This document shows positions 13,251-61,790 of a stretch of 64,000 bases of DNA, in pieces. A program made the position numbers and the translations under genes. Within the stretch, counting starts at the first letter, position 1. Every line of letters begins with the position of its first letter. The notes below the pieces were generated by a model, which saw only the letters and a list, made by a program, of their open reading frames with translations, was not told where the DNA came from and made no database searches. This stretch comes from Patescibacteria group bacterium (GTDB taxonomy: Bacteria; Patescibacteriota; Minisyncoccia; Ryanbacterales; GWA2-47-10b). The stretch is from positions 238,097 to 302,096 of the forward strand of contig JBBTSE010000007.1 of NCBI GenBank assembly GCA_038064855.1, read 5' to 3'.

Positions 13251-13256
13251 AACATC

Positions 13257-13278
13257 CTCACATTCTTAAGTTTGTTGG
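13257..13278. promoter_or_regulatory. Palindromic element copy 1 (CTCACATTCTTAAGTTTGTTGG)
   Basis: 19/19 core match with one substitution. Lies just 3' of the winged-helix regulator gene. Confidence 0.35.
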
Positions 13279-13282
13279 TATG

Positions 13283-13570
13283 TCATTGCACAGCTTGAAA
13301 TGATTTGAGAAATTGAACAAAGGTTTTGCCGTAGGGTGAGAGTGAGTGTTCTACAAATTTGCCACGATAGGTCTTGTTGATGAGTCCTGCCAGATGCAGA
13401 CGCCGCGTGTGCTCGCCGATTGTCTTTCCGTTTGCCTCGAGTTCGTCAACGATGCCATCGAGAGTCACACCGTCGCGTTTTGCGATCAAAAGTAATATCG
13501 CAATACGATAATGATTGGCGATCCCCTTCAAGTGCCGTTCCATCTGCTTTGGTGATTTCATCTTTGCCAT
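13283..13570 (-). CDS. Winged-helix transcriptional regulator (ArsR/HxlR-like)
   Basis: 95 aa with [32 protein letters not shown]...[13 protein letters not shown], an HTH and wing pattern. Flanked on both sides by the CCAACA-N10-TGTTGG palindrome. Confidence 0.65.
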
Positions 13571-13591
13571 ACATTCATGATAAACGATATA

Positions 13592-13613
13592 CCAACATTC
13601 TCAAGTTTGTTGG
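13592..13613. promoter_or_regulatory. Palindromic element CCAACA-N10-TGTTGG, copy 2 of 3; candidate operator
   Basis: CCAACATTCTCAAGTTTGTTGG. Near-identical copies at 15336-15357 and 13257-13278 (one mismatch each). Lies between the regulator gene and the DHFR remnant. Confidence 0.45.
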
Positions 13614-13700
13614 CCTGTTGTGTTGTGTAAAGATTAAATGGGACCGTCCAACCTCCATACTTAAAACCGCCCGATACATCTTCCTCCGGCCCTCCTGGCG

Positions 13701-13752
13701 CCTGCATCACACCGTCTAACGTCACAAATTCAATTACAATTATTTTTCTCAT
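13701..13752. repeat. 52-bp direct repeat, copy 1, carrying the DHFR-like gene start
   Basis: CCTGCATCACACCGTCTAACGTCACAAATTCAATTACAATTATTTTTCTCAT is ~94% identical to 15372-15423. Confidence 0.8.
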
Positions 13753-13764
13753 GATGATATTTTA

Positions 13765-14154
13765 TTATAAATTGACTTCTTTAAATTCGAGCTGGGCCTT
13801 ACCTTCTTTTTTGCCGGGTTGTTGAAAGTTTATGAGCAAACCTTGCTTGATCTTGAGACGCCTCATATAGTTTCTGATCTGTGTATCTTCTGCGACTCCG
13901 AGCTCGCTCGATACCGCCTTTAATTCAACGAGCACCCTTTCTTTGCCGATATGCGCAATCAAATCCAAATACCCCTCGCCTACATAATGCCCTTTGTACA
14001 AAAGCTCTACTACTTTTTGTGAATCATACCTGATCTTTGCAGAACGAAGCCCGACCTGCATGGCCTTGTCATACACCGACTCGGTGAACCCCGACCCCAG
14101 CACCTTATAAACATCTTTTGCTATTGCTTTGATTTTTGATATATTTTTGTTCAT
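13765..14154 (-). CDS. GxxExxY family protein (PD-(D/E)XK nuclease superfamily)
   Basis: GFTESVY (GxxExxY) motif, then GYLDLIAH...VLVELKAV...GLLINF, matching the conserved core of GxxExxY proteins. Its ATG overlaps the upstream gene's stop (TAATG). Confidence 0.8.
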   Translation of the reverse strand: MNKNISKIKAIAKDVYKVLGSGFTESVYDKAMQVGLRSAKIRYDSQKVVELLYKGHYVGEGYLDLIAHIGKERVLVELKAVSSELGVAEDTQIRNYMRRLKIKQGLLINFQQPGKKEGKAQLEFKEVNL

Positions 14155-14546
14155 TATAAAATACTCGAATATTCAGAATAATTTTCTTTGATCAATCTTT
14201 TCCAATTCGTGGTTTCGTTTCCGCCGCCTAAATCATTTTTATGATATACGAGTAGAACACGAACTTTGCTTTCATCTCTATGAATCGCGATGATACATCT
14301 ATTGCCCGAGCCGTGACGAGACTCTTGGATGCCAGCGATCTTAAATTCAGTTTTACAAATCTTTATGCTCCTGTCACCTGAAACATATATGGTCTCTGCA
14401 ATACTTTTCTCAAACAACAAATCAACATAGGTAAACTCAAGCATTAAACCTTTTAGCGTTCGATCCCATGCGCCCTTATACTTCTTAGCAAAAGTTCGGA
14501 TGAAATGCCTTTCAGTGAAAGACCTAAAAACAACATCGTACTTCAT
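14154..14546 (-). CDS. Putative toxin, RelE/ParE-like, partner of the Panacea-domain protein
   Basis: 130 aa. The C-terminal GNRCIIAIHRDESKVRVLLVYHKNDL resembles the RelE/ParE GYRIIY...V.IL.IGHRKDIY core. Sits 2 nt after the Panacea gene and overlaps the GxxExxY gene start. Confidence 0.5.
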   Translation of the reverse strand: MKYDVVFRSFTERHFIRTFAKKYKGAWDRTLKGLMLEFTYVDLLFEKSIAETIYVSGDRSIKICKTEFKIAGIQESRHGSGNRCIIAIHRDESKVRVLLVYHKNDLGGGNETTNWKRLIKENYSEYSSIL

Positions 14547-14548
14547 GG

Positions 14549-15223
14549 CTAATATATCTCATCAGGATTCTCTTGGGTAAAAATATCGTATGAGACGATA
14601 TCGTTGTCTCCTGCAAACATGTACGGCATTTGTTTATGCGTGAATGCCACGATATCAACCGTTCGCCTTCCTTTCCATTTTTCATTGATTTTTTCAATTA
14701 ACTTCAACTCTCCTTTTGAGATTTCGGCTAGACTTGCCCTTGCACCACTCCGAGTTTGAGAAACGAGCATTGCACCATTTCCAGTTTGTTCTATAGAAAC
14801 CTCTCCAGCGTCAAACATCTCGTCAATAAGACGAAAATAGGTATCAGCGACTGGACCGTATTGGATTTTTCTATACTGCATGCCACTCATACTCTTGAGG
14901 TGTACATAAAACCAGCCAAAATCGGCGAAATAAAGCAACTTAGCCAATTTAGTCTTTGGTATATTTTTATTGATTCGCAAAAAAGCGTGTATCATTTGTT
15001 TATATTTCTCGTAGTTAGGAAGTTCCCCATGCTCTAAGTCATCGAGTGAGATGTTTAAAACTCCCGAGAGCTTCTCAAATTCTCCAAGCGTAAGCTCGCG
15101 CTTACCTTGCTCAATAGCAATATAGGAAGGCCGGGAAATGCCTAACTTCAAAGCCAAATCAGCCTGGGAAAGCGCTTTTTTAGATCGAGCGTCTTTAACC
15201 AATTTTGCATATTTTGTAACCAT
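14549..15223 (-). CDS. HTH-XRE + Panacea (DUF4065) domain protein; putative antitoxin and autoregulator
   Basis: N-terminal Cro/C1-type HTH (LSQADLALKLGISRPSYIAIEQGKRELTLGEFEKLSGVL). C-terminal TKLAKLLYFADFGWFYVHL...YGPV matches the Panacea/DUF4065 signature (KLqKLLYyA). Confidence 0.75.
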   Translation of the reverse strand: MVTKYAKLVKDARSKKALSQADLALKLGISRPSYIAIEQGKRELTLGEFEKLSGVLNISLDDLEHGELPNYEKYKQMIHAFLRINKNIPKTKLAKLLYFADFGWFYVHLKSMSGMQYRKIQYGPVADTYFRLIDEMFDAGEVSIEQTGNGAMLVSQTRSGARASLAEISKGELKLIEKINEKWKGRRTVDIVAFTHKQMPYMFAGDNDIVSYDIFTQENPDEIY

Positions 15224-15252
15224 ATCTACAGTGTATATTGATATGTAAAAAA

Positions 15253-15284
15253 GTCAAACATTGATGTTGATAAACTTGACATCA
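15253..15284. promoter_or_regulatory. Overlapping inverted repeats upstream of the Panacea operon; candidate operator
   Basis: GTCAA-N18-TTGAC and TGATGT-N11-ACATCA palindromes sit 30-60 nt upstream of the 15223 start codon (minus strand). Confidence 0.35.
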
Positions 15285-15335
15285 TAAATAGCTGGGAGCA
15301 TAGCTCTGTCTACAGTTTTCATCGTATGCAACATC

Positions 15336-15357
15336 CCTACATTCTCAAGTTTGTTGG
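15336..15357. promoter_or_regulatory. Palindromic element copy 3 (CCTACATTCTCAAGTTTGTTGG)
   Basis: Same element, sitting 14 nt from the second DHFR-remnant repeat. Confidence 0.4.
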
Positions 15358-15360
15358 GTT

Positions 15361-15423
15361 GTCCTAGTAAGCCTGCATCACGCCATCTAACGTCACAAAT
15401 TCAATTACAATGATTTTTCTCAT
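15361..15423 (-). pseudogene. Second, 21-codon remnant of the DHFR-family gene start
   Basis: [19 protein letters not shown], then directly the palindromic element. Confidence 0.55.
15372..15423. repeat. 52-bp direct repeat, copy 2
   Basis: CCTGCATCACGCCATCTAACGTCACAAATTCAATTACAATGATTTTTCTCAT. On the minus strand it encodes [19 protein letters not shown] (21 codons). Confidence 0.8.
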
Positions 15424-15944
15424 GGGCCTATATTATCACCCCTCATCCAACAATCTATGGAGGATCGTAAAAATTTAGCACCCCAAGACACCGATTCAGC
15501 GTCTCGAACATTTTTTATATTTTTTGCTCCGTGAAAAAGATTGCAACGAATTTGGTAGACAAAATCAAAGACCTGTTCTAAGTTACTTTCATCTTGCAGA
15601 TAAACCAGTGTATTTGCACCTGGTCGCATATCTTGGATTGGAGAAAACTCTTTTAATTTAACTGCGTAGTTTGCCGACAAATTCCACCTAGTTAAAATAC
15701 AATCCTTAAAATCACTCTTATTTTGGTAAAAATAATTTAGTTTATCTCGATCCCGACCACACCGAGAAATCTCGGTTAAATATGCATCGAATATCATCCA
15801 GCACAGCATGAAGTCAAGCCATGGATCTTGCCATATTTTAAGCTTTACATTATTTAACTTGGCATTCCACCAAAACATTCTTTCTTTAAAGTCTTGATTA
15901 ACTTCATTTGTATACGAAAGAACCATAAAACTATTTTGCTTCAA
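15420..15944 (-). CDS. Hypothetical protein with R-x4-H (HEPN-like) motif, 3'-overlapping the Type IIG RM gene
   Basis: 174 aa. YQIRCNLFHGAKN carries an R-x4-H spacing. Its start overlaps the last 14 nt of the RM gene, suggesting co-transcription. The HEPN call is inference. Confidence 0.45.
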   Translation of the reverse strand: MKQNSFMVLSYTNEVNQDFKERMFWWNAKLNNVKLKIWQDPWLDFMLCWMIFDAYLTEISRCGRDRDKLNYFYQNKSDFKDCILTRWNLSANYAVKLKEFSPIQDMRPGANTLVYLQDESNLEQVFDFVYQIRCNLFHGAKNIKNVRDAESVSWGAKFLRSSIDCWMRGDNIGP

Positions 15945-18744
15945 TCGTCTTAATTTCCACAGGAGTGAGAGTGTAGAGTTTATATACCCGCTGATCTATT
16001 TCATTTTCCAGTCTTTCAACTTCGGCTTTGAGTGCATGCCATTTGTCAGTGTTTGCCGAAGTCTTGTTTAGTTCAGCATTACGAGCCGCAACCGTATCAA
16101 CGAGGTATGCAATTTTGCTCTGTTCGCTTTCGCCGACCTTGAGCAACGGAATGTCCATCAACGGTTCTTTATCAATTTGTAACTGCTCGCCCTGTTTTTT
16201 GCCTTTATGCTTGAGCCAGAAGTAGGCAAGATTTGAGTTTAGTATGCCCGTCAAGTATTTCAGGTTGATGTTTTCAAGCTTCAAGATAAGGAACGCTCGC
16301 GTAACATAGCAAGGAAAATCAACATAGGTGAATGCCGGATGCATTGTTTTTCGCAACAAGAAAATCGCTTGTCCTTTGAAAAACTTTTCTTCGCGCGGAC
16401 GATGTAAGCCATAAGGAGCAAACGCCGAAGTTAGGATTTTCTTGAAGCGATCAAGGTGATTTTTGAGATTTGGAAACTCACCAATATGTTCCCTGAAATA
16501 CTTGTCGGCGTAAATGATTTTGTACTGGCTTTCTCTGTCGCTTAAATACCTGTTTATCTGTGAAGTGCCGTAGTAAGGTTTTAGGTACTCACGCTCTTTT
16601 TCGTTGAGGTTCATTCCGGCAATCACCGAGTTCCCCAAGACGAACACCCCATCTCCTTTCTTGATGGTGTCGTCTTTCAATTTCGCCAAATGTGATTCCG
16701 AGACGAAATCTTGCAAGACATCTATCCCGTTTCCAATATCGTCCTTTGATAGTTTGAAGTTGCCCACTTTCTCTATCTTTTCCAAGACCTCGGAAACTGT
16801 GTCGTTTGAAAAACTGATGGATTTCCCGCCAGCGTTTACCGATTTTATAGCCGCTTCGTAAACAACTGAGTTTTCAACCTTTTTTTGCAAACCAGAGGAC
16901 AGAAGTGTGGCAACTTCTTCACTTGTCGTATTCTTGCCCGTGATCTTTGCATATTGAACCTTATATGATTTTCGCGGCTTTCTCTTTTGGAAAACGAAAA
17001 TCATTGTTTGAATGCTCGCGTCTTTGAAAACTCGGAAGTCATTGAAATCAACAAACTTGATGATTTCGCCGCTACTCAAAATCTTCTCGCGGAAAATACT
17101 TGCTCCGGCACTTCCGAGCCAACTTGAAGGTGCGATAAAGCTGAAATATCCGCCATCTTTGAGTTGGTCAATGGCGCGGGCGGCGAAAAGCGTCCAGATG
17201 TCCATTTTGCCCTGGTAGTAGGGACTTTCGTGCAAACCATTGAACGCGGCACGATTGGTGTCTTCCTTAATGTACGGTGGGTTGCCAATAATGACATCGA
17301 AGCCGCCCTGCTCGGCAACTCCCGCAAACTCTTTTTCAATATCAAACGGCTTCTGTTCCAACTCACCTTCAGCGAGAAGCGAGTTTCCGACGCGAAGGTT
17401 ATTTTGAAGCACTGGCAGTTTCGTCCTTTGTTGTAAAACTTTCAGAAGAAGGTTGAGCTGGGCGATTTCTACAGCTTGTCCGTCCAAATCGATACCATAG
17501 ATGTTGTCTTTCAAAATATCAAACTTGGTGAACAGCGAGCGTTTGTCTACACTTCCCAAAATCGTGTCGTAGGCGACGGTCAGGAACGAGCCAGAACCGC
17601 ACGCGGGGTCTAGGACTTTGACTTTGTGCATGTCTTTTGGTTTTGTCTTTTTCAATACTTCGCCGAGCGTTTCGCGGACGATAAACTCCACGATGTATTT
17701 CGGCGTGTAGTAAATACCTTGTGATTTGCGCTTTGATTTTACTTTCTCCTCGCCCTTGCGGACTTGGACGAAAGAAAGATATTGCTCGTAGATGCCGCCG
17801 AGCACGTCGGCGGAGATAGCGGAAAAATCGTAGCGATAGCCATCTTTTGTTTCGTACAGTCCTTTTAAGATTTCGGCGAAAACTTTGTCGTCAGCTTCCC
17901 ATTCTTCGCAGTAGTGGAGAGCAAACAGTTTTGAATTGTAGTGTTCGTCAAACCAACGGAAGCCCCGTATCATTCGCTTCCAGATATTCGTGCGCTTCGT
18001 CTCGTATTCGCGCAACAACGCTTGCAAAATAACTTGCTCAATTTTGCGATCTTCGGCAGTGCGGATGAAAATGAGGCGATCAAGAATACGCTGGACGCCC
18101 TCGTCTATTTCGTCAGTGGAAAGGTTGTTGCGCTTTTTGAACTCGGCAGAAAGCGCCACCCGCCAACTCATCAAATCCTCAAACAGTTTTTCGCCGACTT
18201 GCTTGCGCTTAGTGAGTTTGCCCCATTTTTCGGCTTCCTTATCCAAGAGCCGCTGTTCAAAACTCTCTTTTGAGAGAAGCCAAAGCTGATCAAAGCGGTC
18301 TAGGAACTCGTGGACGCCGATTTCAATGAACAGGTTGCGCGATACATCTTTCGGCGAGATTTCGGCGTTGAAAATCTTGATGGTCTCAAAGTCGGTGAGT
18401 ATTGCCCACGTCGCGCTTTTGTTCCAAGCATAATTTATTGCCTGTTCCGCCCATTTCCACTCGTCCAAATCAACTTTCATCGCTTTTGCTTCAAGGAAAA
18501 ATGTTGGGATACCACTCAAACGGAACGCGAGATCCACTCTGCCACCGGATACGTTCTCCTCAGTAGTAACTTCGCCGTCATTGGTGAGGTTACGCATATC
18601 CCAACCCAAAAACTCGAACAGCGGCTCTATGAACTCATTGCGAGTCTGTGCCTCGTTGTACGATTTGATTTTGCCATCCTGCAAGACGCGCTGATATTTC
18701 TCAACGAGTTTTTGTATTGATTGTTTTGCGTCTTGCTTGTTCAT
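15931..18744 (-). CDS. Type IIG/IIL restriction-modification enzyme (MmeI-like fused endonuclease and N6-adenine methyltransferase)
   Basis: 937 aa. N-terminal PD-(D/E)XK-like module (GGRVDLAF...FLEAKAMK), motif I VLDPACGSGSFL, motif IV IIGNPPY, and a long C-terminal target-recognition region. Size matches MmeI-family enzymes. Confidence 0.8.
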   Translation of the reverse strand: MNKQDAKQSIQKLVEKYQRVLQDGKIKSYNEAQTRNEFIEPLFEFLGWDMRNLTNDGEVTTEENVSGGRVDLAFRLSGIPTFFLEAKAMKVDLDEWKWAEQAINYAWNKSATWAILTDFETIKIFNAEISPKDVSRNLFIEIGVHEFLDRFDQLWLLSKESFEQRLLDKEAEKWGKLTKRKQVGEKLFEDLMSWRVALSAEFKKRNNLSTDEIDEGVQRILDRLIFIRTAEDRKIEQVILQALLREYETKRTNIWKRMIRGFRWFDEHYNSKLFALHYCEEWEADDKVFAEILKGLYETKDGYRYDFSAISADVLGGIYEQYLSFVQVRKGEEKVKSKRKSQGIYYTPKYIVEFIVRETLGEVLKKTKPKDMHKVKVLDPACGSGSFLTVAYDTILGSVDKRSLFTKFDILKDNIYGIDLDGQAVEIAQLNLLLKVLQQRTKLPVLQNNLRVGNSLLAEGELEQKPFDIEKEFAGVAEQGGFDVIIGNPPYIKEDTNRAAFNGLHESPYYQGKMDIWTLFAARAIDQLKDGGYFSFIAPSSWLGSAGASIFREKILSSGEIIKFVDFNDFRVFKDASIQTMIFVFQKRKPRKSYKVQYAKITGKNTTSEEVATLLSSGLQKKVENSVVYEAAIKSVNAGGKSISFSNDTVSEVLEKIEKVGNFKLSKDDIGNGIDVLQDFVSESHLAKLKDDTIKKGDGVFVLGNSVIAGMNLNEKEREYLKPYYGTSQINRYLSDRESQYKIIYADKYFREHIGEFPNLKNHLDRFKKILTSAFAPYGLHRPREEKFFKGQAIFLLRKTMHPAFTYVDFPCYVTRAFLILKLENINLKYLTGILNSNLAYFWLKHKGKKQGEQLQIDKEPLMDIPLLKVGESEQSKIAYLVDTVAARNAELNKTSANTDKWHALKAEVERLENEIDQRVYKLYTLTPVEIKTIEAK

Positions 18745-60770: not shown

Positions 60771-61790
60771 TTACTCTTCCTCTAATTTATCGCGTAATGC
60801 TTTCTCGAGGTTTTTGCGTTCTTGTTTGTTTTCTTTTAGAAACAGACGCGCGGCGTCATACCCATGCCCGAGCTTAAGATCACCGAAGGTATGTGAAGCA
60901 CCATTCTTTTTGACCACGCCGAGCTTTACGCCGAGGTTGAGCAAATCTGCCTCATATGAGATGCCTTCATTGAACATGATATCAAACTCGCCTGCGCGAA
61001 AAGGAGCGGCAACTTTGTTTTTTACCACCTTAACCTTTACACGATTACCGATTGTTTCTTCAGCTTTTTTGATCTGCGCCATGCGCCGCACATCAATGCG
61101 TACCGATGAGTAAAATTTGAGTGCTTTGCCACCTGGCGTCGTCTCAGGGTTACCAAACATCATACCAATCTGCATGCGGATTTGGTTGATAAAGATAACA
61201 GTAGTATCAGTTTTAGAAACAATGGCCGTGAGCTTACGAAGCGCGTGCGACATCAGTCGCGCCTGCAAGCCTATATGTTGCTGACCCATATCGCCCTCTA
61301 TCTCCGCTCTAGGTGTGAGTGCTGCGACAGAATCAATGACAATAACGCTCATACCGCCCGAACGCACTAGACTTTCGACAATATCAAGCGCCTGTTCACC
61401 GGTGTCAGGTTGCGAGATAAGAAGCTCGTTGAGATTGACGCCGATCTTCTTTGCGTAATCAGGATCAAGCGCATGCTCAGCATCAATAAACGCTGCAACG
61501 CCTCCTTGCTTTTGAGATTCACGGATAATATGCAAACAGAGTGTTGTCTTGCCTGATGATTCAGGACCAAAAATTTCAATGACACGCCCTCGTGGTACAC
61601 CTCCTACGCCAAGCGCCCAATCGAGAGAAAATGAGCCGGTAGGGATTGCCTTAATAGCAACTTTGGTGACATCGCCGAGTCGCATGAGCGATCCTTCGCC
61701 AAATTTTGACTGTATCGCCTTAACTGCCATATCTACTACGCCAGATCGTGAGTCTCCTTCGGGTTTTGCTTGTTTTTTTACCATACCCAC
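60771..61790 (-). CDS. recA: Recombinase RecA
   Basis: GPESSGKTT Walker [10 protein letters not shown] Walker B, L1/L2 loops. 339 aa. Confidence 0.95.

Follow-up and report, generated by a model that had tools for sequence, protein, structure and literature searches.

The locus described here lies within a 64,000-nucleotide stretch of DNA (hereafter the window) from a Patescibacteria genome of Hainich groundwater (contig name Hain_H51_01um_R3_113), and the question it raises is how the start of a dihydrofolate reductase (DHFR)-family gene came to stand twice, in direct orientation, around a segment of ~1.6 kb carrying toxin-antitoxin and nuclease-fold genes. Judged by their translations, the two copies are genuine remnants of the start of a RibD_C/DHFR-family gene of ~200 residues, and the arrangement is probably the scar of homologous or attachment (att)-like recombination across that start, followed by deletion of the gene body. 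All genes relevant to the repeat locus lie on the minus strand. The features are listed below in the order in which they are read, each with the evidence used for its assignment in brackets.

15931-18744, minus strand: type IIG restriction-modification enzyme with Eco57I/MmeI-type methylase domains, the upstream part of the defence gene cluster (profile matches)
15420-15926, minus strand: 168-residue Rx4H (HEPN-like) protein (homologue alignment)
15371-15424, minus strand: copy 2 of the DHFR-start repeat (pattern search, alignment and tblastn with residues 1-18 of full-length homologues)
15331-15362, minus strand: putative operator/promoter op2, ACAACCCAACAAACTTGAGAATGTAGGGATGT (motif scan)
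15230-15293, minus strand: control region belonging to the toxin-antitoxin cassette (nucleotide homology to other cassettes)
14549-15223, minus strand: antitoxin with HTH_3 and SocA_Panacea domains, 224 residues (domain search; 58 related loci)
14154-14546, minus strand: 130-residue antitoxin partner, presumed toxin (adjacency in related loci)
13765-14154, minus strand: PDDEXK_3/GxxExxY protein of nuclease fold, 129 residues (domain search)
13636-13753, minus strand: copy 1 of the DHFR start, comprising the 54-nt block 13700-13753 and codons 19-39 (alignment, tblastn)
13587-13618, minus strand: putative operator/promoter op1 of the ArsR-like gene, ACAGGCCAACAAACTTGAGAATGTTGGTATAT (motif scan; relatives arranged alike)
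13283-13570, minus strand: 95-residue ArsR/SmtB-like winged-helix regulator (domain search, homologues)
13252-13283, minus strand: putative operator/promoter op3, after the regulator stop and upstream of the DUF1905-YCII-META genes (motif scan)

Past op3 the gene order continues with the DUF1905, YCII and META genes. RecA is also encoded in the window (60771-61790).

A 53-nt pattern taken from copy 2 matched the window at 15371-15423 (no mismatches) and 13700-13752 (three mismatches), both on the minus strand, and nowhere else; 100 shuffles gave an expectation of none, against these two matches in 64 kb. No third or weaker copy was found in the window by a low-stringency search. Gapped alignment returned one ungapped block of 54 nt, 13700-13753 against 15371-15424, with 51/54 positions identical (94.4%) and a longest perfect run of 26 nt. 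The 52-bp direct repeat at ~94% identity reported in a preliminary description of this DNA is thereby confirmed and slightly extended. The edges of the block are sharp. Neither the 48 nt before the ATG nor the 57 nt after the operator showed more similarity between the copies than shuffled sequence does, and in each copy the shared block begins one base ahead of the ATG (position -1). An A/T-rich, -10-like resemblance, 10-19 nt ahead of the two ATGs, was weak and not significant and is present also in two unrelated DHFR-family genes.

Residues 1-39 of copy 1 can be aligned over their full length with residues 1-39 of a 203-residue ‘Dihydrofolate reductase family protein’ (PDB 8jsv; E 1e-18) and show 74-79% identity to four homologues that are full length (178-213 residues); some of the homologue matches carry the source name dihydrofolate reductase. 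The reading of the repeat as the start of a DHFR-family gene, already made in the preliminary description, is borne out by these alignments. The Pfam RibD_C profile was matched by the fragment at positions 1-28 of 197 with 14 bits, below the cut-off of 24.1 as expected for a fragment. When the four full-length homologues were compared with the window by tblastn, only residues 1-39/40 and 1-18 were matched, and residues 41-203 had no match anywhere in the window. With the partial RibD_C match, this identifies both copies as fragments and not genes. They are dead relics, with no sign of present function.

The two remnants end differently. Copy 1 turns abruptly non-DHFR after codon 39, 14 nt before op1, while its open frame extends through op1 to 13558 (64 residues). 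The block in copy 2 consists of a C, the ATG (which overlaps the TGA of the upstream 168-residue gene) and 17 more codons; the frame then reads Tyr-TAG, to 15364, and the stretch of 8 nt between the 54-nt block and op2 is TTACTAGG. The earlier counts of ~35 codons ‘before decaying’ for copy 1 and of 21 codons for copy 2 thus become 39 recognisable codons with an abrupt switch, and 18 codons followed by Tyr and the stop. The boundaries are accordingly nested, copy 1 remaining DHFR to codon 39 and copy 2 stopping exactly at the end of the shared block.

The three mismatches within the block are all synonymous third-position differences (ATA/ATC, GAC/GAT and GGT/GGC). Synonymous changes make up 19.6% of the possible single substitutions in the block, and three out of three gives P ~0.0075 under a uniform model, a value from a sample of three sites that transition bias would raise somewhat. 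This suggests that the divergence took place while both copies were still being translated as DHFR, and not after a dead fragment had been duplicated.

Among the relatives of the 39-residue fragment in a database of 5.8 billion sequences, none was more than 87% identical except the window's own open reading frame (ORF). A second library gave a best match of 90% to P0337, a protein of 85 residues with a non-DHFR C-terminus. Neither collection thus offered an intact orthologous locus. Another truncated DHFR-family start, of 54 codons, was seen beside a glyoxalase gene on a 1.33-Mb contig (L012, 8001-8165). The idea that the many short DHFR matches reflect recurrent truncation was rejected, as most of them are contig-end or frameshifted calls. 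One such gene (L118, 5001-5591) is full length and has an in-frame TGA at a conserved position, from which it follows that the organism probably reads TGA as an amino acid.

The GC content (guanine plus cytosine) of 13.8-16.0 kb is 35-41%, compared with 45-52% in the flanks. The antitoxin encoded between the repeats carries HTH_3 and SocA_Panacea (E 8e-12), Panacea being a hyperpromiscuous antitoxin domain (PMC8832971), and has relatives with 52-85% identity at 58 metagenome loci. The 130-residue partner, whole or cut by a contig end, lies directly downstream of the antitoxin in about 50 of these 58 loci and is 59-75% identical across them (L050-L107). It had no match in Pfam, NCBIfam, PADLOC, PHROG or PDB, and may represent an undescribed toxin family. 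Nucleotide homology between the cassettes spans ~15293 to ~14150 and then gives way to unrelated flanks; the homologous span comprises a control region of ~65 nt, with a promoter-like site and inverted repeats, and the two genes. The control region reads TGTCAAG...ATCAACA...TGTTTGACT, followed by TTGACT-16 nt-TACACT.

The start of the PDDEXK_3/GxxExxY gene overlaps the stop of the presumed toxin gene (TAATG). Since a GxxExxY gene stands next to the cassette in 0/58 related loci, the Panacea system has two genes, and not the three of the module in the preliminary description. The content of the interval is then a stray operator, the two-gene Panacea cassette and an unrelated GxxExxY gene. From the low GC content and the occurrence of the cassette in unrelated contexts elsewhere, the bracketed DNA looks horizontally acquired. 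In one Logan assembly (L003, ERR3858113) the contig breaks at ~14584, at the toxin/antitoxin boundary, inside the insert and at neither repeat; this break could reflect coverage or strain heterogeneity.

Each copy is followed by the palindrome CCAACA-N10-TGTTGG, as previously described, in perfect form after copy 1 (13592-13613) and with one mismatch after copy 2 (15336-15357). A third, more degenerate site at 13257-13278 brings the total to three within 64 kb. Op1 contains TTGAGA-16 nt-TATCAT and op2 contains TTGAGA-16 nt-TACGAT, the latter pointing into the toxin-antitoxin cassette. In the closest relatives the same motif flanks the homologous regulator gene on both sides. The conserved regulator with a palindrome of ~32 nt on both sides occurs in about 35 Patescibacteria species, and in most of 37 species-representative genomes the motif copies are ~335 nt apart, start to start, in the orientation of the gene. 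The consensus is ACAT[C/A]C[C/T][A/T]A[C/T]A-AACTTGAGAA-T[G/A]T[A/T][A/G]G[G/T]ATGT, with TTGAGA in the centre and a -10-like hexamer 16-18 nt later (TATAAT in L006, TATCAT in L005 and op1). On this composition the palindrome is best read as a promoter with an overlapping putative operator that serves the downstream gene, and it is not the end of a mobile element. It was also considered as a known RNA or a terminator, and rejected as such (no Rfam match, no terminator-like site).

Because the palindrome lies 3' of each DHFR remnant it cannot regulate the remnants, and no operator precedes either of them. A DHFR-family N-terminus was found near the regulator in none of the 37 related species, with up to 6 kb fetched on each side, and no operator stands upstream of the DHFR-family gene in a Moranbacteria contig. 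The proposal that the DHFR gene had been controlled by the regulator is therefore not supported. Op1 and op2 differ at 5/32 positions, as do op2 and op3; in other genomes, 59 pairs of operators from the same genome have a median of 4 differences. This difference is near the ordinary within-genome level, so that the operator need not belong to a duplicated block; judged by their base differences, nothing indicates that one operator was recently copied from another. The outer left arms of op1 and op2 are degenerate (ACAGG and ACAAC, against the usual ACAT[C/A]). A candidate for a second remnant-operator fusion, P0008, whose peptide carries KLEN, was dismissed, as the DNA there is not operator.

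The left-hand boundary of copy 2 is formed by the 168-residue gene. Its family is typically of 164 residues, with an invariant RCNLFHG (Rx4H) motif from which alone it may be called HEPN-like, and its members end in ...WMKGE; the copy in the window has lost the native stop and runs on for 4 codons, reaching a TGA that overlaps the start codon of copy 2. Foreign genes thus end 12-13 nt upstream of both ATGs. In the neighbourhoods of the homologues, the gene is never followed by a DHFR gene; the homologues themselves follow restriction or toxin-antitoxin genes.

We hold, with modest confidence, that these features were left by recombination within the DHFR start, with subsequent deletion of the gene body. 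A DHFR-family gene would have been situated directly upstream of op1 and the ArsR-like gene. The incoming segment would have carried, in this order, a stray operator, the Panacea cassette, the GxxExxY gene and its own first 54 nt of a related DHFR gene. Through these 54 nt of homology it would have recombined with the resident gene, leaving one copy on each side. Either RecA would have mediated a single crossover with a circular form of the segment, or a recombinase encoded elsewhere would have carried out an att-like reaction. Codons 40-203 would have been deleted later, up to the edge of the operator needed by the regulator, and a deletion stopping at this indispensable promoter would also explain why copy 1 adjoins op1. 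The site would lie among clustered defence genes of acquired origin, immediately before a conserved, self-contained operator-regulator-operator unit.

A separate deletion is needed: after insertion alone, codons 19-203 should still follow copy 1, but the window contains nothing of 41-203. The earlier view that the inserted module destroyed the DHFR gene therefore stands insofar as the remnants bracket acquired DNA, but not with the insertion as the sole cause. A crossover in a short shared block predicts nested boundaries such as those seen, and the sharp block, the nested structure and the synonymous-only divergence together fit a crossover with incoming DNA that bore its own gene start. The portability of the cassette, with its unrelated flanks in 58 loci, and the RecA gene in the window also count in favour of a crossover. 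Of the two possibilities raised in the preliminary description, target duplication or recombination scar, the latter remains the best description of the locus.

Several observations weigh against this reconstruction. The contigs examined revealed neither an empty site nor a circular junction nor a donor locus. All contigs retrieved by exact-protein look-ups of the regulator, the GxxExxY protein or the antitoxin have the same gene order (the look-up with the DUF1905 protein had nothing on record), and four aligned contigs of the same population agree at 100% identity along as much as 8.5 kb. The window yielded no recombinase: the statement that integrase and transposase are absent holds, with recombinases included, for the called genes within 10 kb on either side and for 20 further ORFs of the window, three of which have no family match. 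Of the three operator sites, op1 and op2 alone lie within 8-14 nt of a DHFR remnant, and the position of op2, 8 nt after copy 2, is the weak point, as it needs incoming DNA from a similar locus. The longest perfect identity, 26 nt, is about the shortest that RecA-dependent recombination can use, the argument from synonymous-only changes depends on three sites, and at least two events, insertion and deletion, are required.

The close association of remnant and operator would be explained directly if a truncated DHFR start together with its operator (~13753 to 13587) had been duplicated in tandem in situ, by unequal crossing-over or replication slippage beside the palindrome, with the insert entering at or near the junction and copy 2 then losing ~70 nt (codons 19-39). 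That only three operator sites exist in 64 kb, that the left arms of op1 and op2 are both degenerate, and that the mismatch rates of remnants and operators (3/54 and 5/32) are by eye alike is in keeping with such a duplication. However, it takes three events, and the insert must have landed precisely where the two copies met; the joints of 14 nt and 8 nt are not detectably similar, nor are the sequences past the operator; op1 and op2 resemble each other no more than any two operators in one genome; and had a dead fragment decayed neutrally, 3/3 synonymous changes would not be expected. We consider this origin unlikely. The synonymous changes also fit two separate, once-functional DHFR-family genes, either paralogues or one native gene and one imported with the restriction-modification and HEPN-like genes, that were truncated independently by deletions stopping at the nearest indispensable promoter/operator. 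Selection would leave the endpoints of such deletions at the edge of a needed promoter, and DHFR-family genes or remnants adjoin small stress- or defence-type genes in other candidate-phyla genomes (L012, L117, L118). This would nevertheless require, as an unlikely coincidence, that both copies have the same left edge of the block, at -1 from the ATG, and a foreign gene ending 12-13 nt upstream. Moreover, 94% nucleotide identity is high for paralogues, compared with 78% to the nearest other fragment available (L012), and there is no trace of the other 160+ codons of either gene. An origin from two genes is in our judgement slightly less likely again than an in situ duplication.

Direct repeats flanking an insert also recall the target-site duplication of a transposon. 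Such duplications are ~2-15 bp long and exact, and 54 nt with three mismatches is far outside this range; the insert has no terminal inverted repeats at its ends and no transposase. An assembly artefact could produce direct repeats as well, but the DNA of the 54-nt locus was assembled independently in ENA and in three Logan run assemblies, which agree at 100% identity. The probability of either is close to negligible. A wider interpretation, that the first 54 nt of the DHFR gene or the edge of the palindrome form a reusable docking site at which defence cassettes are stacked by a recombinase acting in trans, seems to us very unlikely. If it were true, the restriction-modification/HEPN-like genes, the Panacea toxin-antitoxin pair (PanAT) and the GxxExxY gene would be the cassettes, the operator-regulator-operator unit would mark the sites, and the whole would constitute a cassette-accretion system not yet described in Patescibacteria.

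Genomic islands and integrase-less cassettes situated between imperfect direct repeats of the end of a target gene are known as att-type islands, as cis-mobilisable elements and, in staphylococci, as pseudo-SCC elements beside orfX. Gene-fragment repeats around acquired DNA are thus already familiar. The present locus resembles the att-type islands in having imperfect repeats of some tens of bases, derived from the end of a protein-coding gene, around a defence/toxin-antitoxin cargo, as well as in the lack of a recombinase in the bracketed segment and in a second defence module immediately beyond one repeat. It differs from them in that no integrase or Ccr-type recombinase was found in the genes examined here, the upstream module has no third repeat at its outer boundary, the target gene has not been restored but is missing from codon 40 on, and no empty or excised form of this locus is known. 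With Campbell-type integration it shares the order A-insert-A in direct orientation, the confinement of the repeat to a sharply bounded shared block and the presence of RecA; unlike there, the homology is confined to 54 nt, of which at most 26 match without interruption, and the circular donor is hypothetical. The cassette is like PanAT systems (Kurata et al. 2022, PMC8832971) in its antitoxin of HTH and SocA_Panacea, the conserved small gene next to it and a promoter/operator region of its own. Unlike in the described systems, the partner, a putative toxin, matches no described family, and the neighbouring GxxExxY gene is outside the system.

If the locus has been read correctly, the DHFR-family gene would be dead at this site, the toxin-antitoxin cassette would lie downstream of an ArsR-type promoter in addition to its own, and the direct repeats could permit RecA-mediated loss of the 1.67-kb segment. 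The locus would document the assembly of a small acquired defence and toxin-antitoxin cluster in an uncultured bacterium from groundwater, with a DHFR-family gene lost in the process. For annotation, the palindrome would become a putative regulon-wide promoter/operator, the DHFR remnant falls outside the control of the regulator, and the Panacea system is reduced to two genes. Of more value than the scar may be the regulator with its flanking palindromes, a unit whose sequence is retained in many Patescibacteria while its neighbours are not.

This 95-residue regulator is 64-81% identical in 35 full-length loci of other species, with a best database homologue at 88%. Its scores are below the family cut-offs (HTH_5, 19.2 bits against 22; HTH_metalloreg, 29.7 against 55), so that ‘ArsR-like’ names the fold class only, and since it has no cysteine, classical metal sensing is unlikely. 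It is like the autoregulated ArsR/SmtB repressors in being a small winged-helix protein encoded after an imperfect palindrome of ~32 nt that covers TTGAGA and the spacer, in ~35 species. It is unlike them in its subthreshold Pfam/NCBIfam scores and missing cysteine, in the second operator copy that follows directly after the stop codon at fixed spacing, and in that the whole ~370-nt unit is without conserved neighbours. The regulator and its two palindromes (13252-13618 in the window; L005-L049 and L100) form a discrete unit of this length, and its nucleotide homology to 40+ loci of other species stops at the outer edges of the palindromes. The first gene downstream differs nearly everywhere (32 Pfam families in 32 genes), and the upstream side is equally varied. 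The collection of literature searched contained nothing on the regulator/palindrome unit.

Whether the region upstream of the regulator is a general hot spot for defence genes was considered and found to be only partly true: the 143 upstream ORFs of 38 loci yielded 148 Pfam families, housekeeping ones included. The upstream side is rich in defence genes in L005, L006, L007, L100 and the window, and in L006, L007, L010 and L100 the gene immediately preceding the regulator is of the PDDEXK_1 type. In L100 (168-9400), another Patescibacteria contig, a PanAT cassette of the same kind stands between two operator copies, ~2.7 kb upstream of the ArsR-like gene, in the company of a type I restriction subunit, RhuM/Fic and a PDDEXK_1 (Cas4-like) gene. 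In L005 (3342-4110) an operator palindrome comes within ~20 nt after a transfer RNA (tRNA) gene, and ~600 nt of little coding potential then lead up to the regulator; Rfam recognises only the tRNA in this region. An operator-like palindrome was also seen within a called TspO/MBR ORF (L006, 5204; L008, 1446; L009 and L011, 1637; L010, 2529), which would mean either a split or fusion of that gene or an internal promoter.

The Rx4H family (L108-L112), finally, was given no family assignment by any library searched. Its members follow restriction-modification genes in the window and in L112, and in L108 the gene occurs twice in tandem among toxin-antitoxin genes.

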